Notes under the pieces: generated by a model
Told to the model about the DNA's origin: nothing
Database searches by the model: none
The model's input: only the letters and a program-made list of their open reading frames with translations
Part shown: piece by piece, positions 7,869-52,610 of the stretch
Layout of the letters: every line of letters begins with the position of its first letter
How positions within the stretch are numbered: position 1 is the first letter of the stretch
Position numbers and translations under genes: made by a program
Source of the DNA: Candidatus Zhuqueibacterota bacterium
Lineage (GTDB): Bacteria > BS750m-G25
Direction: 5' to 3'
Assembly (NCBI GenBank): GCA_016783505.1
Contig: JADHWK010000003.1
Span: 1-64,000 of the forward strand
DNA: 64,000 bases

Positions 7869-8266
7869 TTACGCATCTTCTGTGCCTTGTTTGCATTTTC
7901 GGAGATAAGCTATATATCCATTAATCTTCTCTATGAGAAAATAACCGTCCTTCTTGAGTTCTTCGTCATACCCTTTTTCTCCATATCCTTCGTCCAGACA
8001 AACGTTAATATCGTCAAGAATCTCTGCGACTGAACCCCTTGAAATCCTACCCCGATCCATCGGGGGATATTTTCAAGATAATGCCAACGTCCGTGACCTT
8101 CGGCTATATTGTTCGTAACAGAAACGATAGTTTTTCTCATCTGTGGGTTTAAACAATAGCGTTCTTCAGGCGGTAGTTGTTTAATGAGTTTAAAAACTTT
8201 TTGTCTAAACTTCCTCGCCAATTTATACAACTCAAAATCGTCCAACCTGTATTTTACTTTTAGCAT
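7869..8266 (-). pseudogene. Four-helix-bundle (IVS/bAvd-like) protein, frameshifted
   Basis: LPPEERYCL.PQMRK..VSV.NNIAEG.GR in one frame and RISRGSVAE..LIEKINGYIAYL in another; a palindrome at 8050-8065 marks the junction. Confidence 0.85.
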
Positions 8267-27200: not shown

Positions 27201-27754
27201 GAGAAAAATAAAAAAAATAGCCCTATGGGCTATTTTAAAGGGGTCAAAACCCCGGTTCCCCCCTTTTTTGGGGAGGAACATTTAAAAGCGACTGATCTTC
27301 CGGGAAGTTAGGTCATCTAATCTTTCCCCCTGCCCGGATTATAGTGAAGCTTCGCCTCCCTGGGCCATGCGGCGTCTAGCCCCGGGTAGGCAAACCGATA
27401 AGACAAGAATTAAGAAAATCCGAAATCCGAATATCGAAATCCGAAACATCCCGAATAATCGGGACAAATATCAAATGCTCAAAAAGTTTTTCACTTATAC
27501 GCAATATGGCTCTCGCCTTTTTAGCGAACGAAAGAGGTGCGATATTCCAAATCATGTTGTTTAGGATTTTGAATTTTAGTCATTGGTCAGGCGCCCAACT
27601 GATTTGTATTTGTTTCGAGCTTCGTCCCGAAGGTTCGGGATCGTGCTTCCGTCAGGCGCCGGACTGATCGGATTATTTAAGGTATTTTGTTCTGCAATAA
27701 AGTTGCATCGCTGACTAACCACTAAAATTCGGGAAAACTCTATCTTCTCCCCAT

Positions 27755-28492
27755 TTATCCCCTTCTCGATGAATAGAAATTGGGTTCGTCATCCGCCAGC
27801 TCATTGGCCAATTTCAGCGACTCGAAGGTGCCCGCGTCAGTCCACCATCCCCGCATGAGGTTAAAGGTCATCTCTCCCCTCCTGATGTAATCGTTGTTCA
27901 CGTCCGTTATCTCCAGTTCGCCCCGCCCCGAGGGCTTTAGGGTACGGATAATATCGAACACCCGGGGATCATACATGTAAATGCCAGTAACGGCCAGCTT
28001 GCTCTTTGGTTCTTTGGGCTTTTCATCGATAGACAAAATCTTATTCCCCCTGACTTCCGCCACTCCGAAGCGCTGCGGATGGGGAACCTCCTTCAATAAA
28101 ACTTTAGCCCCCTTTCCTTGGTTTCGATATTCTTCAACGTAGGTAGTAATATCATCGGCAAAGATGTTGTCCCCCAAGATAACCACCATCAGCTCTTCCC
28201 CCACAAACACCTCGGCCAATCCTAAGGCCTCGGCTATCCCCCTCGCTTCATCCTGGACCTTGTAGGTAAACTGGCATTTAAAATCCCTCCCGCTGCCCAA
28301 AAGGTTGACCACATCCCCCATATGTTCCACCCCGGTGACTACCAGAATATCTTTTACACCCGCCCTGAGTAGTTTCTTAATCGGATGAAAAATCATCGGT
28401 TCGTGACCCACAGGAAGCAGGTGTTTGTTGGTCACCTTGGTCAAGGGATAAAGCCTCGACCCCGTTCCCCCCGCCAGAATAATCCCTTTCAT
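27755..28492 (-). CDS. Sugar-1-phosphate nucleotidyltransferase (glucose-1-P thymidylyltransferase, short form)
   Basis: MKGIILAGGTGSRLYPLT, RGELEITD, WTDAGT. Confidence 0.9.
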   Translation of the reverse strand: MKGIILAGGTGSRLYPLTKVTNKHLLPVGHEPMIFHPIKKLLRAGVKDILVVTGVEHMGDVVNLLGSGRDFKCQFTYKVQDEARGIAEALGLAEVFVGEELMVVILGDNIFADDITTYVEEYRNQGKGAKVLLKEVPHPQRFGVAEVRGNKILSIDEKPKEPKSKLAVTGIYMYDPRVFDIIRTLKPSGRGELEITDVNNDYIRRGEMTFNLMRGWWTDAGTFESLKLANELADDEPNFYSSRRG

Positions 28493-28503
28493 CGTCCCTC
28501 CGA

Positions 28504-30081
28504 TCAGTCAAAAAAACGGTCAACGTTTAAGTATAGGCTGATCTTTCCATTGATCTCTTTATCATTTTCCCCAAGTTGGTTTTCTCTGTTTTTGATTGCC
28601 GAATGATCAAGCTGGAAGGAAACGTTTAGGTTGGCCGATGGTTGATATAAAGCCATGACCCGAATGGTCCAGGTTCTTTCTACTATCCCGAAAGGGAAGT
28701 CCTCATGATAGCCTTCAGCTACGGTATAATCCAACCAAGGGGTGTCCCAATCGGCCTCCACCCGCCCCTCACCTCGCCGGGTTTTGACAACTTCCACCGA
28801 AGTTTTAAACAAAGGAGACATCCATTTCCCCACCCGCACCTGCCAGCGGTCAAAATCGTTGCCCAGGAAATAGCCAATAGGACGATTTCGATGGAGGAAT
28901 TTTTCCCAGCGGTTGGGGGTGTTATACGTCCGATTAGTAACACCGGTGTATTCGATCCCAAGATTGCTTCCACCCACGCCTAAAAAATCTGCCCACTGAA
29001 ATCCCACCAGCCAGCCGAGCTCGTTGGGCTCCAGGTCACCGGGTTCCTTTTTATCCACCTGGAAGTCGTCCACTAAAAATTCCCCATAGAATTCAAAATT
29101 TGGTCGGGGGAAGAAGTCAAAATCAATACAACCAAGGGTATTGCCCGCCGCCCCGGGGTCGTTGTTCTGCACCCCATGGAAGAGGAGAAACGGGTTAAGG
29201 TACCGCAATTCCAGGGTGCGGTTATCCCCCCCATAAAGAATCACCTCGGTGAAACCCAGATTGAGTTTCGGACTCAGCGCCAGGTCCAACCGATGGGCGG
29301 CCAGATAGCGCCTGGCCCCGTCCCGGGTGTCCAGTTCGGCGGTGAAAAACGTAAACCCCATCAGTCGGGTTCTGCCCTGCAAGAGCAGTAGGTCAAAGGG
29401 CCGGGAGTGATCCGATATGAGCAGGTTTCCGCTCCGCCCTGAACCCCACTTTAAAAAATCCCGGCCCAGCTTTATCCCCACGTATTTCCCCCGATAGAAA
29501 AGATAGGCCTGTTCGGTATAGGCGGCCATATCCCGCCACCGTTTGCCAATATAGGTGGCATCGTCCGCCAGATAGGGATCCAGGATCATCCCATTAAAGA
29601 CCACTAGATGTTCTCCGGCCATGACCCCAATTTTGCTGCGGGCCCTACTCCGAAAAGTGGTGCCGCCCTCCCGAATTACATTTCCATCTCCCTCAATCAA
29701 GGCTCCCAATTTAACGGTCACCCCCTCATCGGATTTAAGCTCCTCAATTTCGGGGCGAAACTCCTCCTGTAGCCGATCAATAAGCCACTGTTCCTCCCGG
29801 GTCGGGAAATGCCTGGAAAGATCAATAGCTTCCTGAATCTCCAATAACCCCAGGGCCACTTCCCCCCGGGTATACGGCTTATTGAGGACAAAAAGGTCAC
29901 TGAAATACCCTCGGGTCCGGAGCTCATCCAGATGACCATAAGCCCAATGATAGGTGGGCAGGGTCTCCAGAATACCTGCTAATAATCTAGCTCCAAATAG
30001 GCCGAACCAAAACAAAAGAAACAAAAATTTTGTTTTAGAGGGGATAAATTTTATTATTCTTTTACCTTTCCAAAAACTCAT
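28504..30081 (-). CDS. Wzi-like capsule assembly outer-membrane protein
   Basis: KPYTRGEV N-terminus, GRDFLKWGSGRSGNLLIS, GFTEVILYGG, YGEFLVDD. Confidence 0.7.
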   Translation of the reverse strand: MSFWKGKRIIKFIPSKTKFLFLLFWFGLFGARLLAGILETLPTYHWAYGHLDELRTRGYFSDLFVLNKPYTRGEVALGLLEIQEAIDLSRHFPTREEQWLIDRLQEEFRPEIEELKSDEGVTVKLGALIEGDGNVIREGGTTFRSRARSKIGVMAGEHLVVFNGMILDPYLADDATYIGKRWRDMAAYTEQAYLFYRGKYVGIKLGRDFLKWGSGRSGNLLISDHSRPFDLLLLQGRTRLMGFTFFTAELDTRDGARRYLAAHRLDLALSPKLNLGFTEVILYGGDNRTLELRYLNPFLLFHGVQNNDPGAAGNTLGCIDFDFFPRPNFEFYGEFLVDDFQVDKKEPGDLEPNELGWLVGFQWADFLGVGGSNLGIEYTGVTNRTYNTPNRWEKFLHRNRPIGYFLGNDFDRWQVRVGKWMSPLFKTSVEVVKTRRGEGRVEADWDTPWLDYTVAEGYHEDFPFGIVERTWTIRVMALYQPSANLNVSFQLDHSAIKNRENQLGENDKEINGKISLYLNVDRFFD

Positions 30082-38998: not shown

Positions 38999-40000
38999 TC
39001 AGTTCTGCTTATTTTCTGACAATCTTTCCCTCCTGGTTCTTTTCACCTCCTGGATGACGTGTTGCACCACCTTCTTGGTGGGGACAAAGATATTGAAACT
39101 GAGCCTTATCTCCAGGTCGGCTATCCCCTTAAAGCTGCTTTGATACCGGATGCCCGTATCCGTGGACAACCAATCGGTGATAAAATAGCGGATCCCGCCC
39201 AGACCCAGGTAAATCTGTTTGACATCCACCAGGGTATCTTCAACATTGTACTGCAAGTGGGGAACCAACGTCACCTCAAACATATATCGGGTGGTGGGAT
39301 TGGCATCAATGGTGAGGCCGGCAAACCCGCCTATCAGATTTTGCTGCCTTTCGGTGGGTTCCTCTTTGGTTGACCAATCATAAAATTGGGTATTTACCCC
39401 CTTGACCCTGACATCAGTAAGGCTTACCCCACCGTGAAAGCCCACCGGACCCAGATATTCACTCACAACCCCATACAGGGTGGTAAAACGGGTATCGTAG
39501 CCGATATGGATGATTCCATTTTTTGCAAATTCGTCATTAGCCCTCAGATAGTCCCCCGCAGCCACAATTCCATTCCAACCCCCTTTCCAGCCATTGGTGT
39601 TAAATCCCCCGGTAGTCTGCAGAAACACAGCAGCGATAGGAAACCATTCCCAGCCGAATAGCTCCTCGGGCAAGAGCTGCATCTTAAACCCCGAGGTTGG
39701 GATAGAGGTTGAGCCGGCGGTGATGTTGTTGGCCAACCTGCTGGTAGTGATCTGAACCTCGGCCACGTTCCCCAGACCGATGCCGATGTTATGCAGAAAT
39801 GAGCCGTCCATATTCACCCCGAAGGCGCTGCCGGCGGTCAGATCAACGTCCATGGCCCGCAACACCTTAGCGGTGGGGCTGATGAAAAGCCGGGACGGAC
39901 CGCTCAATTCCTGGGCGTAGGCCGCCAGACCATAAAAACACAGGCAACCCAAGATCACCCATCTCCATCTTTTGGAATTCTTAATCATTTTTCCCTCCAT
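38999..40000 (-). CDS. Hypothetical outer-membrane beta-rich protein
   Basis: Signal peptide, PTAKVL motif, amphipathic beta strands. Confidence 0.55.
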   Translation of the reverse strand: MEGKMIKNSKRWRWVILGCLCFYGLAAYAQELSGPSRLFISPTAKVLRAMDVDLTAGSAFGVNMDGSFLHNIGIGLGNVAEVQITTSRLANNITAGSTSIPTSGFKMQLLPEELFGWEWFPIAAVFLQTTGGFNTNGWKGGWNGIVAAGDYLRANDEFAKNGIIHIGYDTRFTTLYGVVSEYLGPVGFHGGVSLTDVRVKGVNTQFYDWSTKEEPTERQQNLIGGFAGLTIDANPTTRYMFEVTLVPHLQYNVEDTLVDVKQIYLGLGGIRYFITDWLSTDTGIRYQSSFKGIADLEIRLSFNIFVPTKKVVQHVIQEVKRTRRERLSENKQN

Positions 40001-46691: not shown

Positions 46692-48122
46692 TCAACGTAT
46701 TTTATTATTACGGGGTAACCAGATACTAAATTTCAACCCCCCACTTTTAAGCCTTTGCGCTCCTATTCTTCCGCCGTTGTCCTCCACCAGCTTCTTGACC
46801 ATAGCCAGTCCCAGCCCGGTCCCCTGCTCATGGGTAGTGAAAAAGGGATCGAACAGCTTATGCATCAAATCGTCGGAAATCCCCTTCCCCGTGTCTTCAA
46901 AATCAATCACCATCCATTCCCTGTTGGGGACGGTCCTAATCGTAATCAAGCCACCATCGGGCATGGCCTGTATTGAATTCTTAATTAAGTTCAGGAAAAC
47001 CTGTTGCAGTTGCCGAGGGTCAACGAAGATAGTACTGTTCCCCCCCAGTTCTTGTAAATCTATTTTTACCCGGGTTTTTTCCAGGTCGTGGGAAATCACG
47101 GCCCGGACTTCTGCCATCACATCGGACATCACACAGTGTTTGGGATCAGGTTTGCTGGGCCGGGCGTAGTCCAGAAATTCGTTGATGATACCCTTCAAAT
47201 TTTTCACCTCCTTCAATATTTTCTGGGCCCGTTCTCGCTGCTCTTGATCCTCTCCCGATTCATCGGAAATTAGATTGGCGAAAATTTCAATCCCCCCCAG
47301 CGGATTTCTGATCTCGTGGGCTACCCCGGCCAGCATAGTCTTCTGCTGGTGATCCCGGCGGAGGATGTTATCCTTCATGTCGTCCAGGGTCTCAGCCAGG
47401 AAGCCTATCTCACCCCCGCTTTTCACTGAGATAGGCTTTTGATAGTTGCCGGCGCCGATTTCTTTGGCGGCGACCACCAGTCTTTTGATGGGATTAACAA
47501 TAGTTTTGGAAAAAAGAACGGCGATTAAAACAGCTGCTAGAACGCTTATTATCCCGATTATAAATAGGTTTCTCCTGATTGACCGAATTGATGCCAGAAA
47601 GGTGGCACTGGCATCCACCCCCAGCACCGCCATAACTTCCCCGTTGACAAAAACCGGCCAGTATCCCGACTTATAAAATAAACCGTCAACCCCTTTGAAA
47701 AGGACAGAGGCAGCAGGGATACCTTTGCGAACGGCCCTGAGTTCTACTTCATCGAACCTAAGCTTTGGGTAGTCTATCCCTATGGGAACTCCCTCATCCG
47801 TTTCCACTAAACTAAGCAAATTCAGATCAAAAAAGTAGATTCTTTTTACGTCGGTATTGAACCTTATACGCATTAGCTTCTGTCTAATGTTTCGATAGGT
47901 TCGACTCCCCTCATCCCCTGGTCGTAGTTGGATTACCCCCTCCCCATCAATCTGGGCGGTTACGGCGCCGGCCACAGCAATCAGCTTCTTACCCAGCTCG
48001 TCGTCCAAACTATCCCGGGCTGCGGTATAGAGCAAAAATCCGCAGAACCCCACCACGAGGACAACCATAGCAGATAGGACAAAAACCAATCGGCTTAGAA
48101 TCCTGTTCTTAAGAATTACCAT
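46692..48122 (-). CDS. HAMP sensor histidine kinase (NtrB/ZraS-like)
   Basis: Two TM, AHEIRNPL, NLIKNSIQA, DTGKGI, GTGLGL. Confidence 0.93.
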   Translation of the reverse strand: MVILKNRILSRLVFVLSAMVVLVVGFCGFLLYTAARDSLDDELGKKLIAVAGAVTAQIDGEGVIQLRPGDEGSRTYRNIRQKLMRIRFNTDVKRIYFFDLNLLSLVETDEGVPIGIDYPKLRFDEVELRAVRKGIPAASVLFKGVDGLFYKSGYWPVFVNGEVMAVLGVDASATFLASIRSIRRNLFIIGIISVLAAVLIAVLFSKTIVNPIKRLVVAAKEIGAGNYQKPISVKSGGEIGFLAETLDDMKDNILRRDHQQKTMLAGVAHEIRNPLGGIEIFANLISDESGEDQEQRERAQKILKEVKNLKGIINEFLDYARPSKPDPKHCVMSDVMAEVRAVISHDLEKTRVKIDLQELGGNSTIFVDPRQLQQVFLNLIKNSIQAMPDGGLITIRTVPNREWMVIDFEDTGKGISDDLMHKLFDPFFTTHEQGTGLGLAMVKKLVEDNGGRIGAQRLKSGGLKFSIWLPRNNKIR

Positions 48123-48154
48123 GGAATATTTTTTTATTTCTATAATTTTTTAAA

Positions 48155-48215
48155 TGCAATTATAATGCCAGAGTCGTTACACTTTAATTATAAAGAATAT
48201 TCTTTTATAAATCAA
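48155..48215 (-). promoter_or_regulatory. Tandem sigma70 and sigma54 promoters for the two-component operon
   Basis: TTGATT-17bp-TATAAT (48215-48187) and TGGCATTATAATTGCA (48170-48155). Confidence 0.65.
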
Positions 48216-48301
48216 GGATTTTTTGAAAATAATAATAAAAAAAAGCCCATGGATATAAATCCAATGGGTTTTGCATGGTAACAAATTTTAACAAGAAAAA
48301 T

Positions 48302-48425
48302 GCTCCAGAGGAGGGATCCTTCAAAAGCCGGACTTCCACATCGTTCTAGCTCGAACCCCCATCCCGAACCTTCGGGATAACCCGTCTGCCACTCATAAAG
48401 TGAGGCGGGCAGGCAGCCACCCGCT
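48302..48425 (-). repeat. Degenerate tRNA-Asn copy 1 (3' two-thirds) with two inserts and one replacement
   Basis: GCTCCAGAGGAGGGA..CTCGAACCCCC..AAC..AGCCACCCGCT matches 50843-50894. Confidence 0.85.
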
Positions 48426-48523
48426 AAATTAAACTACGCAGGAAGTCTCGTCCCCCATGAGATTTAAGTTCCCTCTCACGCCGCAATGCTGCGCATGGGG
48501 ATTTACCTTCTTTTTTGTAAAAT

Positions 48524-50278
48524 TTATCTATTCTTCCAATATCCCGCATTTACTTCTTCATAAGCTATTCTCTTTTTGTTAATCCAACCTATAAATATTG
48601 AACGATTGCCTTCAAATCTACCTGCAAATCTGGTAGTTGAAATTAAATAACATTTTTTAATAGTACGAGCAAGTGCAACAATCAATTGACATATCTCGAT
48701 ATCAGAAGGATTTTTATTACTTCTAGGTAAATTCCCTTCATTTAAACCAACTATAAATACATAACCTGCAGAAAGTCCTTTACAACCCACATATGTAGTT
48801 AAAGCTACTGATATATAATCGAGAGAAAAACTTTCCCCCCCATCTCTCTTTTCACCATCTTCATCTTTACTAAATTCTGCCTTTAAATCCTCAAGTTTAA
48901 CTCTAAAAAAATCCTCTAATATCTCTCTTTCCTCTCGATTAAGTTCCATATCATTTTTCAATTTTTCAAAAATCCCCAGATTGACTTCGTGTTTCTTAAT
49001 ATAACTTTTTGGTAAATAATCGTATAATCGTTTCTCACCATCTTTGAGTGTCTTCTTCAACAAGTTTCCAATATTTTTAATGGGATCGTGTTCTAATAAT
49101 ATCCTCCAACCTAGATTTGAAAATTTGTCTTCATCTAACAATATCTTATAGCCATCATTAATTGAAATCTTTTTTTGTTCTATCTCTATCTTTCTAAAAT
49201 GTAGAATGTATTTTTCATCTCGTTTCAAATAAGAATTTATCTGTTTCAGATATTGCTTAGGACCGGTTATCAAAACCGTATAATCGCCTTTACTATTTGA
49301 TTCTTTAATTTCATCTAAAGTTAGCTTATCAATTTCCTGCTCGATAAATTTGGCTACATAAGGAGCATTTTTTTGTTGAACACTACAGTAAGCGTGAATA
49401 ATTTTAGGATATTTTTTACTATCCTGTAATTTCTCTGGTAAATAGCAGATATACTCTTTATTAACTCGGTTCATAAGTTTTCCTATTTGTTTGGCTTTAT
49501 TAATAACATCATCTATAGCTTTAATCATCACATAAGGACATCTACTACAAAAGGGTAACATAAATCTTTTGTATTTAGGGTCTTTGAATTTTTCTCTTAT
49601 ATATTGGGGTGAAGCATATTTCAATCGAGTATAAAGTGCTTGGTCATCGTCTCCAACAATTAAAATAGGACTTTTTGTTTCTAAAATATTTATAAACTCA
49701 ACTTCCAATTTGTTAAAATCCTGATACTCATCAACTACAATCTGGTCGTATTTTGGAACTTCATCTGGTTTTTCTCTAAAATACTCAAGTACTCTAAAAA
49801 CGGAATCGTCAAAAGATACAGCATTATAGTAGTTAGAACGTCTCAAAAAGAAAGAAATATTTTTGCTTTCATAATCAAGCTGTTTAAAACTACGACTAAA
49901 ATTTGGGTCTTTATTATAACTTATTCGAGCATCTGATTTTATAATTAACTCTAATTTGGGAAAGAGAATGAAATCATCATCGATACCTTCATGATTAATC
50001 TTATGCAATAATTCTTTACAAAAGCTATGAAATGTACGTGACTTTGCTATATCTTTTAAATCTTTTTTTAATTTTTCTGCTAAATTATTAATAAAAGTCA
50101 AGGCGAGATAATTCCCTTGTTTTCTCTTCAATAATTCATAAAAGGTATATGTTTTCCCTGTACCAGGACCAGAAACGATAACTTTCTTGGGACACGTAGA
50201 CTCAAGTATTCTTCTAGTAAATTTATTTCTTTCTTCCTCTTGTTTTTTGAGATATGACCTTAATTCTTCTTCATTCAT
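48524..50278 (-). CDS. UvrD/SF1-like helicase/ATPase, AT-rich
   Basis: GPGTGKT, TFHSF, VVDEYQD, VGDDDQALY, KGL, VALAR. Confidence 0.85.
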   Translation of the reverse strand: MNEEELRSYLKKQEEERNKFTRRILESTCPKKVIVSGPGTGKTYTFYELLKRKQGNYLALTFINNLAEKLKKDLKDIAKSRTFHSFCKELLHKINHEGIDDDFILFPKLELIIKSDARISYNKDPNFSRSFKQLDYESKNISFFLRRSNYYNAVSFDDSVFRVLEYFREKPDEVPKYDQIVVDEYQDFNKLEVEFINILETKSPILIVGDDDQALYTRLKYASPQYIREKFKDPKYKRFMLPFCSRCPYVMIKAIDDVINKAKQIGKLMNRVNKEYICYLPEKLQDSKKYPKIIHAYCSVQQKNAPYVAKFIEQEIDKLTLDEIKESNSKGDYTVLITGPKQYLKQINSYLKRDEKYILHFRKIEIEQKKISINDGYKILLDEDKFSNLGWRILLEHDPIKNIGNLLKKTLKDGEKRLYDYLPKSYIKKHEVNLGIFEKLKNDMELNREEREILEDFFRVKLEDLKAEFSKDEDGEKRDGGESFSLDYISVALTTYVGCKGLSAGYVFIVGLNEGNLPRSNKNPSDIEICQLIVALARTIKKCYLISTTRFAGRFEGNRSIFIGWINKKRIAYEEVNAGYWKNR

Positions 50279-50282
50279 CTCT

Positions 50283-50455
50283 CTAATCTTCTATTACAGG
50301 GTCATCAATTGAAATTCCTAAAGCCTTAGCTGCTTTAATCAAAGTAGAAACTCTCGGGTCTTTTATGCCGCCTGTTGCTAGTTTAATGATGGTATTGTAT
50401 GAGATATCCGCCTTTCAAGCCAAAGCTTCTTGAGTCAATCCAATTTTTTTGCTTT
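50283..50455 (-). pseudogene. XRE-family HTH regulator remnant
   Basis: KKIGLTQEALA*KADISYNTIIKLATGGIKDPRVSTLIKAAKALGISIDD; no start codon found. Confidence 0.75.
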
Positions 50456-50494
50456 TTGCTATAAAAAAAGGGGCTTAAATCCCTTTTCTATTAA

Positions 50495-50552
50495 GCTCCG
50501 GAGGAGGGACTCGAACCCCCATCCCGAACCTTCGGGATAACAGCCACCCGCT
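50495..50552 (-). repeat. Degenerate tRNA-Asn copy 2
   Basis: GCTCCGGAGGAGGGACTCGAACCCCC[palindrome]AACAGCCACCCGCT. Confidence 0.9.
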
Positions 50553-50833
50553 TAAGTCTGAATATGATACTCTCCGGAAATCAACTTCTTAATGAACCCC
50601 TTACTCTTCTGGAATTTTACAAACCGTTCCGCCCTTTGAGCAGAAATACGATCAGAAAATTCCAAAGTGAAAATCAGTTTCCAAGGGCGTCCTCGCTTAG
50701 TCCATCCCTTTTGACTGGTATTATGATATAAAAGTCTCTCTTCCGGGTCACGAGATATACCAGTGTAGTATTTTTCCAGTTTATCAGAATAAAGAATGTA
50801 TAAATAACAGGGATCTCGATTAGAGTATTGCAT
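50552..50833 (-). CDS. Small GIY-YIG endonuclease
   Basis: YLYILYS...YYTGIS.DPEERL..HN, TKRGRPWKL, AQRAERFVK. Confidence 0.9.
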   Translation of the reverse strand: MQYSNRDPCYLYILYSDKLEKYYTGISRDPEERLLYHNTSQKGWTKRGRPWKLIFTLEFSDRISAQRAERFVKFQKSKGFIKKLISGEYHIQT

Positions 50834-50843
50834 AAATTAAAAG

Positions 50844-50915
50844 CTCCGGAGGAGGGACTTGAACCCCCAACCTAGTGGTTAACAGCCACCCGCTCTCCCA
50901 TTGAGCTACTCCGGA
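50844..50915 (-). tRNA. tRNA-Asn (GTT), CCA not encoded
   Basis: TCCGGAG TAGCTCAATGGGAGAGC G GGTGG CTGTTAA CCACT AGGTT GGGGG TTCAAGT CCCTC CTCCGGA G folds as a cloverleaf. Confidence 0.95.
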
Positions 50916-50985
50916 ACAGAACATCAAAAATCACTTGAACATAAAATCCAAAATTCTATCCTAAAATCCGTAGTAACAAAAAAAT

Positions 50986-51055
50986 GGACTCGAACCCCCA
51001 TCCCGAATCTTCGGGATAACAGCCACCCGTCCCGATCCTTCGGGACTACTCCGGA
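50986..51055 (-). repeat. Degenerate tRNA-Asn copy 3 (two hairpins replaced)
   Basis: GGACTCGAACCCCC[pal]AACAGCCACCCG[pal]CTACTCCGGA. Confidence 0.9.
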
Positions 51056-51180
51056 TTTTTTACAACAAACTATTATTTCTACCCCCATCCCGAAACTTCA
51101 GAATCAGGTACAGATGGGTCTTAGGTTTTCTATTATACTGTTATTGCCAGTTTTAGTTAGTTCATTTAAAATTTACCGAC

Positions 51181-51381
51181 TTATCCTGCTGCAACTTGTT
51201 GGTATGAGAAATTAAGAATATTGGCGCGTTGCTTGGCGTGTTCGATTGTCATACTAACCAAGTTTCCATCTTTATCAAGTTCGACTAGAATATTTTCGTT
51301 TAGATCTCGAGTGTCGACAATTTCCTTATCAGTAAAATTGACAAGAACAGTGTCCGTATCCTGAAAATATTTGATTTCCAT
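51181..51381 (-). CDS. DUF2283-like small protein (putative antitoxin)
   Basis: MEIKYFQDTDTVLV, ILVELDKDGNLVSMTIEHA. Confidence 0.75.
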   Translation of the reverse strand: MEIKYFQDTDTVLVNFTDKEIVDTRDLNENILVELDKDGNLVSMTIEHAKQRANILNFSYQQVAAG

Positions 51382-51623
51382 TAGATGTCCTCCTTAAAAG
51401 AACTGTCAAAGAAAGCATTGTGAATAGTTTCCCCATCTTCCAACAGAATAATACGAAGATATTTGTCATTAGCTTCTGAAATTTTTGCCCATCTTTTGAT
51501 CCGACCATCAGATTGAATCTCTTCTTTAACAGGATTGTTATAGATATACTCAATCCATTCCATTTTTATATCTCTCCTATCGTTACGTTGTAGAGTGTAA
51601 AGAAAGTATTGAGTAAATTTCAT
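51381..51623 (-). CDS. Putative RelE-like/DUF4258-type toxin
   Basis: 80 aa, QSDGRIKRW...YLRIILLEDGETIHNAFFD; overlaps the DUF2283 start. Confidence 0.6.
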   Translation of the reverse strand: MKFTQYFLYTLQRNDRRDIKMEWIEYIYNNPVKEEIQSDGRIKRWAKISEANDKYLRIILLEDGETIHNAFFDSSFKEDI

Positions 51624-51649
51624 TTTCAGTAAACCTATAACATTTCTGT

Positions 51650-51762
51650 TTCGGGGAGGAATCCGTCAAGAGCCGGACTCACACTTCGTTCTAGCTCGAA
51701 CCCCCATCCCGAACCTTCGGGATAACAGTCACCCGTCCCGATCCTTCGGGACTACTCCGGAA
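51650..51762 (-). repeat. Degenerate tRNA-Asn copy 4 (near full length; two hairpins replaced, one insert)
   Basis: Same 33-nt insert as copy 1 and the same palindromes as copy 3. Confidence 0.88.
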
Positions 51763-51770
51763 TATATTAT

Positions 51771-52610
51771 TCAAAGAACCACACTTTTATGCCTGGCGGC
51801 GTGGCATTGGATGTTCACCGCCGCCGGCAGGCTGGCGATATGGCAGGGATAGACCTCGATGAAGACGGCCAGGGCGGTGGTTCTACCACCCAAGCCCTGG
51901 GGGCCGATGCCCAGTTTGTTTACATCCTCCAGCCATTCCTTTTCCAGCTTTTCGTAATAAGGATCGGGATGAACGGATCCGATCTCCCTTAAAAGGGCCT
52001 TCTTGGCGATCTGTGTGCATTTGTCGAACGTCCCCCCGATGCCCACCCCCACCACGATGGGGGGACAGGGGTTGGCCCCCGACCGACTGACCCGGTCGAG
52101 CACAAACTGCCGGACGCCCTCAACCCCGTCGGCGGGCTTCAGCATCCACACTTCACTCATGTTTTCGCTGCCACCGCCCTTGGGGGCCATGACAATTCTG
52201 AGCTTATCCCCGGGAACCATTTCTGTCCAGATAACCGCCGGCGTGTTATCGTCGGTGTTCTTTCTCTCCAGAGGATCAGAAAGAATGGATTTCCGCAGAT
52301 ATCCCTCGGTATATCCCTGCCGTACCCCTTCGTTGATAGCTTCTTTCAAGTCCCCGTTCAAGTGGACATCCTGACCTAGCTCCACAAAAAAGACGGCAAA
52401 GCCGGTGTCCTGACAAATGGGCACCCTCTCTTCAGAGGCAATCTTAGCATTTTCCAGAAGCTGGTCCAGAATATTCCTACCGGTAAGGGATTCCTCCCGG
52501 GCCTTGAATGTCTTAAAAGCCTCCACCACATCCTGACCCAGATAGTAATTCGACTCCATACACAGGTTTTTCACCGCTTCGGTAACGGTCTTAACGTCCA
52601 ATTCTCGCAT
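51771..52610 (-). CDS. Fe-S fumarate hydratase/tartrate dehydratase alpha subunit
   Basis: PICQDTG, GYLRKS, KGGGSEN, NPCPP, GPQGLGG, CHAARH. Confidence 0.92.
   Translation of the reverse strand: MRELDVKTVTEAVKNLCMESNYYLGQDVVEAFKTFKAREESLTGRNILDQLLENAKIASEERVPICQDTGFAVFFVELGQDVHLNGDLKEAINEGVRQGYTEGYLRKSILSDPLERKNTDDNTPAVIWTEMVPGDKLRIVMAPKGGGSENMSEVWMLKPADGVEGVRQFVLDRVSRSGANPCPPIVVGVGIGGTFDKCTQIAKKALLREIGSVHPDPYYEKLEKEWLEDVNKLGIGPQGLGGRTTALAVFIEVYPCHIASLPAAVNIQCHAARHKSVVL

Follow-up and report, generated by a model that had tools for sequence, protein, structure and literature searches.

Small GIY-YIG nuclease genes and hairpin-bearing pseudo-tRNA copies at a tRNA-Asn gene of a Candidatus Zhuqueibacterota bacterium

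The Ssn proteins and the phage endonuclease SegB are the described systems that come closest to a locus of a Candidatus Zhuqueibacterota bacterium in which a small GIY-YIG nuclease gene lies between an intact tRNA-Asn gene and one of several dead copies of that tRNA. The locus is part of a stretch of 64,000 nucleotides (nt), hereafter the window, which is positions 1-64000 of the 90-kb contig C85 in a 2.5-Mb assembly (G000) of 89 contigs that is 60% complete. According to the main text and supplements at hand of Chenal et al. (2025; PMC11893778), Ssn proteins are nucleases with a lone GIY-YIG domain (94 amino acids in SsnA of Neisseria meningitidis) whose binding to a dispersed hairpin repeat (NTS/SRM) requires that the DNA be single-stranded, and their cut sites lie a few nucleotides upstream of the hairpin. 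The ssn genes are typically flanked by the repeat (NTS-ssnA-NTS), NTS hairpins in Neisseria also bracket genes that do not encode nucleases, and Neisseria SsnA has a host-level role in that it modulates transformation (PMC11893778). SegB of phages T4 and T6 is described, in the accessible parts of two reports, as a free-standing GIY-YIG homing endonuclease within a tRNA gene cluster (PMC2330249, PMC13096335). In phage T6, the SegB-driven tandem amplification of units made of tRNA and nuclease genes by recombination has been demonstrated experimentally, and it proceeds by homologous recombination together with microhomology at the tRNA 5′ end (PMC13096335, same parts). A third group, the Slx1-like proteins, is read as vertically inherited repair nucleases in the consulted part of the survey by Dunin-Horkawicz et al. 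(2006; PMC1564403), where the table entry for "Slx1 non-Eukaryota" is "no C-terminal Asn".

We consider it rather probable that the locus consists of the stacked scars and live parts of at least two insertions of a small selfish GIY-YIG cassette at the tRNA-Asn gene, to which unrelated insertions have been added. It has the look of selfish DNA that has piled up at a tRNA gene rather than of an integron-like machine for gene capture, and its sequence suggests a variant of the Ssn hairpin/nuclease kind that is nested in tRNA genes, a nesting that we did not find described. In thousands of genomes, such small GIY-YIG proteins bear the annotation of hypothetical protein or repair nuclease, and the characterised family, Ssn, is known for dispersed hairpins and transformation control, not for tRNA genes. 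The comparisons below show many such genes in or against tRNA genes, where they appear to duplicate parts of the tRNA and to leave dead copies marked by hairpins. If this is true, integrases would no longer be needed to account for many "att-like" tRNA fragments and pseudo-tRNAs, tRNA genes would attract a second, integrase-free class of mobile DNA, and a natural set of hairpin/nuclease pairs for single-strand cleavage would be at hand.

The tRNA-Asn gene, its copies and the nuclease gene

The features that carry the argument are the following, with the pseudo-copies of the tRNA named Psi1 to Psi4.

50843-50915, minus strand: intact tRNA-Asn(GTT), called by ARAGORN, the sole tRNA in the window
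50552-50833, minus strand: GIY-b, intact gene for a single-domain GIY-YIG nuclease of 93 amino acids (Pfam GIY-YIG, expectation value (E) 5.7e-14)
48424-48549, minus strand: GIY-a, apparent C-terminal remnant of an older GIY-YIG gene, 41 codons and stop (hhalign)
48302-48425, minus strand: Psi1 (copy 1), from the 3′ strand of the D stem to the 3′ end, with the shared hairpin and two 33-nt inserts
50495-50552, minus strand: Psi2 (copy 2), from the 3′ strand of the D stem to the 3′ end, with the shared hairpin and without inserts
50986-51055, minus strand: Psi3 (copy 3), from the 5′ end to the T loop, with hairpins in place of the D arm and of the anticodon-3′/variable region
51650-51762, minus strand: Psi4 (copy 4), full length, with both hairpins, a 33-nt T-loop insert and a decayed 3′ acceptor strand
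51080-51104, minus strand: decayed fragment of a pseudo-copy, part of the hairpin and T stem (MAFFT alignment)
50916-50985, minus strand: AT-rich spacer of 70 nt between Psi3 and the tRNA-Asn gene

Rfam places the tRNA-Asn gene at 50844-50915 (69 bits) and finds no other RNA family at E<=1 within 47500-52500, so that no copy is recognised as a tRNA; the gene is the only tRNA-Asn called in the assembly. A first-pass annotation, made by a model from the letters and their open reading frames, had reported this tRNA with four degenerate copies and a fragment, all in one orientation. ARAGORN, Rfam, blastn and MAFFT together recovered every one of these elements where it had been placed, the copies and the fragment being located by blastn and MAFFT on the strand of the tRNA. 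All four copies carry the hairpin TCCCGA-AGGT-TCGGGA in place of the 3′ strand of the anticodon stem and the variable-loop region, as well as an A>G change in the T loop, and neither is present in the tRNA. Since the hairpin and the T-loop change are common to the copies and absent from the tRNA, copies were evidently made from copies, as had been proposed earlier together with the derivation of the repeats from the tRNA, and the Asn copies appear to form a lineage of their own rather than separate decay products of the tRNA. In Psi3 and Psi4, the D arm has also been replaced, by GTCCCGA-AGGA-TCGGGAC; as we read the alignment, the loops of both converted arms still have tRNA-like letters and the stems have turned into the canonical CCCGA/TCGGG.

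The shared parts of the copies are very similar according to blastn: 97.0% identity over 67 nt between Psi3 and Psi4, 97.7% over 44 nt between Psi2 and Psi3, 91.7% over 72 nt between Psi1 and Psi4, and 96.3% over 27 nt between Psi2 and the tRNA-Asn gene. The MAFFT alignment upholds two further details of the first-pass annotation, namely the 33-nt insert common to Psi1 and Psi4, which lies in the T loop, and the retention of the tRNA 5′ end in Psi3 and Psi4. An additional 33-nt insert in the anticodon loop occurs in Psi1 only. Psi1 and Psi2 begin at the same point, in the 3′ strand of the D stem (AGCGGGTGG).

The gene GIY-b is tightly fitted between the tRNA and Psi2. Its ATG (50833) lies 9-10 nt past the 3′ end of the tRNA, in agreement with the 10 nt noted earlier, and its stop codon (50552-50554) abuts Psi2. 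The Pfam match spans residues 9-78 of the 93 amino acids, and the protein is thus a single-domain GIY-YIG protein of fewer than 150 amino acids, as the Ssn nucleases are. The columns with Tyr, Tyr, Arg, His and Glu are invariant across the four GIY paralogues of this genome, and we take these residues to be the catalytic ones. The nearest solved structures are the UPF0213 proteins 1zg2 (E 4.7e-17) and 1ywl (E 1.7e-13), followed by SLX1, and the sole match in a PHROG search is weak (E 7.5e-4). GIY-b is accordingly labelled here as a predicted nuclease that resembles Ssn and the bacterial Slx1-like proteins. At 50834-50849 of the window, the 3′ acceptor strand of the tRNA (..CCGGAGC) places GGAG approximately 10 nt upstream of the ATG. 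The gene may have borrowed its ribosome-binding site from the tRNA gene, and its promoter was probably borrowed from the same source.

The remnant GIY-a, of 41 codons, appears to be a second GIY-YIG gene, which the first-pass annotation overlooked. Its alignment with the GIY family in hhalign has a probability of 67% and an E of 5.2e-5 over columns 51-79, the C-terminal third. The stop codon extends over the opening bases of Psi1; the tRNA position of this junction is that at which GIY-b and Psi2 meet. The DNA of GIY-a and GIY-b has no similarity until the shared AGCGGGTGG. Towards its 5′ side, GIY-a shares sequence with the end of a helicase gene, which belongs to the remaining modules of the locus:

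48524-50278, minus strand: UvrD-like superfamily 1 helicase, 584 amino acids, low in guanine and cytosine (GC) (Pfam UvrD-helicase and AAA_19, E 3.3e-19)
50283-50459, minus strand: XRE-type helix-turn-helix (HTH) pseudogene without a start, in-frame TGA at 50415-50417 (HTH_3, E 3.2e-12, scored on the translation with X at the stop position)
51181-51381, minus strand: DUF2283 protein, 66 amino acids, putative antitoxin (Pfam, E 3.4e-15)
51381-51623, minus strand: open reading frame of 80 amino acids that shares one base with the start of DUF2283 (DUF4258, E 0.15, which misses the cut-off)

In the reading direction of the tRNA, the elements follow one another as fumarase, Psi4, the 80-amino-acid frame, DUF2283, the fragment, Psi3, the 70-nt spacer and tRNA-Asn, and then GIY-b, Psi2, the broken HTH gene, the helicase gene, GIY-a, Psi1 and the kinase. 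The block with the tRNA-Asn gene is 3.6 kb long and lies between a histidine-kinase gene and a class-I fumarase gene; its GC content is 0.347 compared with 0.464 for the whole genome. This low GC content marks the block as foreign in character, and we count it in favour of the cassette insertions proposed above. The helicase partially matches the GajB and PcrA/UvrD profiles and matches the phage helicase family phrog_1967 (E 3.2e-30), and no GajA-like partner is present; the label of defence that had been given to the cargo is consequently not sustained. Among 300 other genomes searched, a relative of the helicase (40% identity) occurred in one, with no tRNA in the stretch of about 4.2 kb fetched around it. 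The toxin-antitoxin-like pair sits between Psi4 and the pseudo-copy fragment. The helicase, the broken HTH gene, the DUF2283 gene and the GIY-YIG gene are present as the first-pass annotation had listed them, but its toxin is only a lead, namely the possible DUF4258-like nature of the 80-amino-acid frame, whose nearest clusters in a protein atlas are unnamed proteins of 80 amino acids (score 0.96).

The first-pass annotation had further stated that no recombinase is encoded here. The Phage_integrase profile found no tyrosine recombinase on the 90-kb contig, but eight elsewhere in the assembly, and no serine recombinase was found in the assembly, which is 60% complete. On another contig (C59), two tyrosine-integrase matches (27532-29395) lie directly upstream of a tRNA-Ser(GCT) gene (29519-29610), and they look like an ordinary integrase-borne element of the same genome.

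Positions 48100-52000 were found, whole or in parts, in sequencing runs X1-X14 of nine studies of marine, aquatic, subsurface and vent metagenomes, and none of the matched runs holding them was an RNA run. A 931-nt contig of run X6 comes from a strain approximately 99% identical to ours, with 11 differences over 892 nt (51046-51937). This contig joins 50905 to 51046 through 10 shared bases, with 39 nt on the short side, and lacks 140 nt, which are the rest of Psi3 and the spacer; the join places the intact tRNA of that strain where Psi3 stands in the window. The polymorphism may be either an insertion or a deletion, and the arrangement of the locus, for which identity among relatives had been named as a reason for doubt, is therefore not fixed, to the extent that one contig of a near-identical strain without copy 3 can tell. 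In run X5, one contig departs from the window at 50547, where GIY-b ends, and may represent either a different gene joined at this point or a different organism. There was no cover over GIY-b (50539-50805) in run X6 and almost none over the helicase gene in runs X7 and X8, and missing cover in contigs was not counted as evidence of absence.

Recurrence of the layout and of the hairpin

A search of the assembly with PF01541 matched six places, which are UvrC, a weak 127-codon frame on contig C84 and four small genes, and the four small genes alone matched the alignment of the GIY family. All four abut a tRNA gene (Asn, Asp, Ala or Pro) accompanied by pseudo-copies of the same tRNA, and the genome-wide count of such flanked genes that had been suggested earlier thus gives four of four. 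The three further cassettes are as follows:

C5:38478-39091: cassette at tRNA-Asp
C81:27002-27409: cassette at tRNA-Ala
C81:39240-39715: cassette at tRNA-Pro

A full-length Asp pseudo-copy (39013-39091) is called by ARAGORN as a second tRNA-Asp. The reading frame begins just past the T arm of a pseudo-copy in three of the four GIY genes, and in two of them it extends into the 5′ end of the intact tRNA. At the Asp and Pro loci, pseudo-copies stand on both outer sides, and one tRNA arm of the copies has given way to TCCCGA-N4-TCGGGA; in the Ala copy, the hairpin is a 7-bp variant. The element CCCGA-N4-TCGGG occurs on both sides of the GIY gene, within approximately 240 nt, at the Asn, Asp and Pro loci (3/4), and the variant hairpin of the Ala locus on one side only. 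A partial copy lies within 1 kb of 8 of the 35 tRNAs called by ARAGORN. Partial copies with no nuclease gene nearby were observed for Glu (C35:19061-19394), one of which ARAGORN calls "tRNA-???", and for Val(GAC) (C63:36091-36117); these may be gene-less relics of the same type of cassette.

The layout also recurs in distant bacteria. The profile of the GIY family matched 125 of 301 sampled genomes, G000 included, and all of the other genomes belong to bacterial families other than that of G000. Among the 29 best-scoring loci outside G000, a tRNA on the same strand lies no more than 150 nt from the GIY gene in 18 (upstream in nine and downstream in nine), and a partial copy of the neighbouring tRNA stands on the far side of the gene in 14. 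According to a rough estimate from the tRNA density of G000, less than one of 29 such adjacencies would be expected by chance. The causal tie between the nuclease gene and the repeats, as put forward in the first-pass annotation, is borne out by this layout at all four genes of the genome and at 14-18 of the 29 loci of other families. Several loci contain arrays of partial tRNA copies (L008 and L009), and the number of GIY matches differs within genera (2 vs 6, 1 vs 5 and 1 vs 4).

Filled and empty versions of the same site were found in two congeneric genomes, G003 and G173. The filled tRNA-Phe site of G003 reads Psi-left, 15 nt, tRNA-Phe with its terminator, GIY gene and Psi-right, where Psi-left is made up of a 12-nt piece of the tRNA 5′ end, a zipped-up hairpin at the anticodon and the 5′ strand of the T stem, and Psi-right consists of the end of the D loop, the zipped hairpin and the 3′ end. 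The empty site of G173 has one tRNA-Phe with its terminator between the same flanks (94% and 87% identity), and the two sites differ by 451 nt. At tRNA-Ser(GGA) the roles are reversed, with G173 filled and G003 lacking the GIY gene. Comparisons of the same kind for L013 in G176 and for L008 in G134 ended at contig breaks. The inner Asn unit (Psi3, spacer, tRNA-Asn, GIY-b and Psi2) is built exactly as the tRNA-Phe cassette of G003 is, and this build accounts for copies on both sides of the tRNA, of which the left ones keep the 5′ end. The first-pass annotation had pointed to copies on both sides as unlike a classic att duplication; the layout is real, but it is the standard build of this type of cassette and not an oddity.

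A tree of the GIY proteins was computed from 35 sequences, of which 23 labelled rows were used (L015 was dropped as the same locus as L007), and 3 of its 32 inner branches are well supported. Three proteins, from L018, L021 and L028 (genomes G231, G106 and G171), form a supported clade (SH-aLRT 95) and have no tRNA in their 3.2-kb loci, and one of them sits in a frame of 343 codons. This clade may be a branch of the GIY family without a link to tRNA.

The hairpin of the pseudo-copies belongs to a family dispersed throughout the genome. The element CCCGA-N4-TCGGG occurs 293 times; the runner-up among 5-mer stems reaches 47, and the mean is 4. In its fuller form, RTCCCGA-N4-TCGGGAY, it usually has stems of 6-10 bp and can be divided into several sub-families whose flanks are conserved. 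Most copies are intergenic, with 56 of 293 within long open frames, which cover 86% of the genome; 15 lie no more than 300 nt from a tRNA (approximately 2.8 expected), and 278 are farther off. Examples in the window are at 8051, 15013, 17206, 18629, 27450, 27626, 42571, 46606, 56930, 57212, 57274 and 60510. In three other genomes, the counts for the hairpin of the local pseudo-copy and for a control were 62 vs 1, 15 vs 0 and 1 vs 0, so that the hairpin is also dispersed in two of the three. Moreover, a 45-nt hairpin piece from a pseudo-tRNA-Val by a GIY gene (L008 1785-1830) is found at approximately 15 places in the congener G134 with 83-100% identity.

In addition, directional elements of the form GTCATTC..GAATC number 47 in the genome of the window, against 5 in the control, and 11 of them have a CCCGA tip. 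Some are nearly identical to the core of the Neisseria NTS and look canonical; examples are at C24:12406, C26:7041, C50:7566, C34:525 and C84:1886. A "TGTCAT" tag derived from the anticodon loop, as seen in the Asp pseudo-copy, was considered as a general feature and rejected, with GTCAT before the stem in 4 of 586 flanks.

Proposed origin and rival explanations

According to the reading that we prefer, the cassette would consist of a single-domain GIY-YIG gene, a working tRNA copy and partial tRNA copies on the outer sides, the arms of which have been turned into the genome's own dispersed hairpin. The inner unit, with Psi3 as left repeat and Psi2 as right repeat, would be the young one, and the outer unit, from Psi4 to GIY-a and Psi1, with both repeats marked by the T-loop insert, the old one. 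The younger cassette would have been inserted into the tRNA of the older, and the toxin-antitoxin-like pair and the block of broken HTH and helicase genes would be low-GC DNA that landed later between dead copies, the helicase block removing the 5′ part of GIY-a. For the activity of the nuclease, its target, the order of events and the conversion of the stems, SsnA and SegB serve as our models. By analogy with SsnA, the nuclease would bind its hairpin where DNA in or close to tRNA genes is single-stranded and cut beside it, and by analogy with SegB, breaks at the tRNA gene would be repaired by recombination between tRNA-like repeats. Such repair would duplicate segments of the tRNA and keep one functional copy, while the other copies would decay and their stems would become the hairpin; the cassette could spread in this manner by using tRNA sequence as portable homology. 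The growth of the locus by nuclease cleavage and recombination between tRNA repeats, which had been suggested earlier, is plausible, with a precedent in phage SegB in the consulted part of the T6 study (PMC13096335).

A far-reaching version of this proposal, which we regard as unlikely, is that Ssn-like nucleases use tRNA genes as universal landing pads and that hairpin-converted pseudo-copies act as both cleavage sites and portable homology arms, which would permit movement, cargo included, without integrase or transposase. If it were true, such loci would constitute a tRNA-anchored, nuclease-driven platform for gene capture and would offer a way to seed dispersed hairpin repeats.

Several results weigh against the insertion of at least two cassettes. 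Psi1 is nearly identical to Psi2 although the DNA of GIY-a is unrelated to that of GIY-b, which would require gene conversion or local copying. The repeats of the Pro locus take in 15 nt of non-tRNA flank, and this flank, together with the full length of Psi4, means that a simple model of a resident tRNA split in two does not fit some cases; which tRNA copy is the resident one in the filled tRNA-Phe site is ambiguous. No tRNA is called on contig C84, which carries the fifth, short GIY-YIG frame (23.6 bits), and 11 of the 29 loci have no same-strand tRNA within 150 nt. The tRNA isotype is not clustered on the poorly resolved GIY tree (16 changes, with 16 or fewer in 69 of 300 shuffles). The polymorphism without Psi3 rests on one contig with a short side of 39 nt. 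No relative of G000 closer than "same domain" exists in the genome collection, and no synteny with the window was seen in 80 metagenome loci whose fumarase is 59-71% identical; none of them has a tRNA within 6 kb downstream (room 0-8000 nt) or a histidine kinase homologue. Regarding the hairpin, the published SRM pattern (HGTC tag and stem) has 21 matches in the genome compared with 8-18 in shuffles, no match overlaps a CCCGA hairpin, GTC precedes the stem in only 172 of 586 oriented flanks of CCCGA hairpins, and no conserved one-sided tag (CGTC) was found in these 586 flanks. Finally, the pseudo-copies fold no better as RNA than shuffled sequences do (z 0 to -1.8), and this gives no case for a selected RNA structure.

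The first-pass annotation had viewed the locus as an integron-like array, that is, an active platform without integrase in which GIY-YIG cleavage at the repeats captures and reorders defence or selfish cassettes. Such a platform would fit a locus in which a gene module occupies every one of the three stretches from one tRNA-like repeat to the next, with all modules co-oriented, the toxin-antitoxin-like pair is flanked by Psi4 and the fragment, and the arrangement differs between near-identical strains; the tandem amplification by SegB in phage T6 (PMC13096335) and the NTS hairpins around non-nuclease genes in Neisseria (PMC11893778), as given in the consulted parts of these sources, point the same way. 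We nevertheless judge it improbable and do not retain it, because there is no recombinase on the contig, no excised or reordered cassette was seen in the metagenome contigs (the excised circles that were to be looked for included), two modules, the HTH gene and GIY-a, are wrecks, the one relative of the helicase in 300 other genomes has no tRNA in the stretch of about 4.2 kb fetched around it, and no complete defence system accompanies the GajB-like matches. Foreign cargo between the repeats was not seen at the 29 loci of other families, which hold the nuclease gene only, with or without the tRNA, and we therefore read the helicase/HTH and toxin-antitoxin-like modules as later insertions into dispensable DNA; alternatively, it is conceivable that the hairpin-bearing tRNA-like repeats helped these modules in. 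Ordinary tandem integrative islands, with the copies as attL and attR of tyrosine-integrase elements whose integrases were lost or lie elsewhere, are a very unlikely explanation. tRNA genes are the classic sites of integration, the GC content of the island is low, Psi1 and Psi2 stand on the 3′ side of the tRNA and contain its 3′ end, and integrases do occur elsewhere in the assembly, two of them beside the tRNA-Ser on C59. However, Psi3 and Psi4 lie 5′ of the tRNA and keep its 5′ end, the copies carry derived hairpins and inserts instead of exact tRNA sequence, the 90-kb contig has no integrase, and the layout follows the GIY-YIG gene, in this genome without exception and at 14-18 of the 29 loci elsewhere.

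The GIY-YIG protein might also be a housekeeping or domesticated factor, co-transcribed with tRNAs and active in repair or in the control of transformation, in which case the pseudo-tRNAs would be by-products of duplication and decay that were colonised by an independent hairpin. The consulted part of the 2006 survey, with its vertically inherited repair nucleases (PMC1564403), and the host-level role of SsnA in transformation, as given in the text at hand (PMC11893778), are in keeping with such a factor, as are the Glu and Val pseudo-copies without a GIY gene and the 278 of 293 hairpins more than 300 nt from any tRNA. Copy numbers that differ within genera, filled and empty orthologous sites, partial copies located precisely on the far side of the gene at 14 of 29 loci, and frames whose ends fall within the tRNA or on the opening base of the pseudo-copy make this explanation quite unlikely. 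An assembly artefact, in which the repeats made the assembler chain unrelated pieces, could be suspected in a bin of 89 contigs that is 60% complete, and the Logan contigs of runs X7 and X8 do break at hairpins. However, 0.94-0.98 of the words sampled from 48100-52000 are present in four runs of two studies, the only runs with most of the stretch, and error-free contigs of run X5 span GIY-b, the tRNA, Psi3 and the fragment (50602-51093) as well as Psi1 and the GIY-a remnant (48292-48520), which argues against an artefact. The same architecture is present in complete genomes, and we regard an artefact as extremely unlikely.

Comparison with known systems

The proposed insertion of selfish GIY-YIG cassettes would set the locus apart from the systems in which arrays or islands are usually described. 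An integron has intI with attI beside the array; here contig C85 has no Phage_integrase match, and the boundaries are direct repeats derived from a tRNA. Integrase-borne islands at tRNA genes duplicate the 3′ part of the tRNA as attL and attR. The locus shares with them low-GC DNA by a tRNA gene and direct repeats of tRNA sequence at its bounds, but it has no integrase at an edge, and in place of an exact 3′ duplicate at the far end only, it has modified repeats on both sides, the 5′ end included. The REP/BIME elements with their RAYT enzymes, which are also discussed by Chenal et al. (PMC11893778), are similar in that dispersed intergenic hairpins are tied to a small nuclease gene flanked by them, whereas the enzyme here is of the GIY-YIG kind instead of a Y1 HUH transposase, and the elements sit within tRNA genes. 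A description of GIY-YIG cassettes in bacterial tRNA genes was not found in the literature searched.

SegB belongs to the I-TevI/Seg clade, which has extra DNA-binding modules, and GIY-b is a bare domain with no such modules joined to it. Another feature of the SegB type, presence and absence at orthologous sites, was found at the tRNA-Phe and tRNA-Ser sites of G003 and G173; for the Asn locus, there is one contig that lacks Psi3. As in SegB, the GIY-YIG gene is wedged among tRNA genes, and the accessible parts of the SegB reports mention an association with many tRNA isotypes. According to the same parts, SegB is a phage protein that cuts double-stranded DNA, whereas GIY-b is a 93-amino-acid domain of the Slx1-like/UPF0213 branch on a bacterial chromosome, and hairpin-converted pseudo-tRNAs are not described there for SegB loci. 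The UPF0213 proteins of known structure (1zg2, BH0048; 1ywl, EF2693) are the best structural matches and share the minimal GIY-YIG domain with GIY-b, but the consulted part of the 2006 survey reports no association of this group with tRNAs or repeats (PMC1564403).

The comparison with Ssn, made by sequence alone, has both sides. The term tRNA is absent from the main text of Chenal et al. (PMC11893778) and occurs only in gene descriptions in the 12 of its 14 supplements searched, whereas the hairpins here are built into dead tRNA copies and the cassette carries or abuts a working tRNA. Moreover, the CCCGA hairpins lack the one-sided CGTC tag and escape the published pattern. In common with Ssn, the locus has a single-domain GIY-YIG protein of approximately 90 amino acids, its gene is flanked on both sides by a hairpin that occurs in hundreds of mostly intergenic copies, and the genome holds the 47 directional GTCATTC..GAATC elements that are close to the NTS core.

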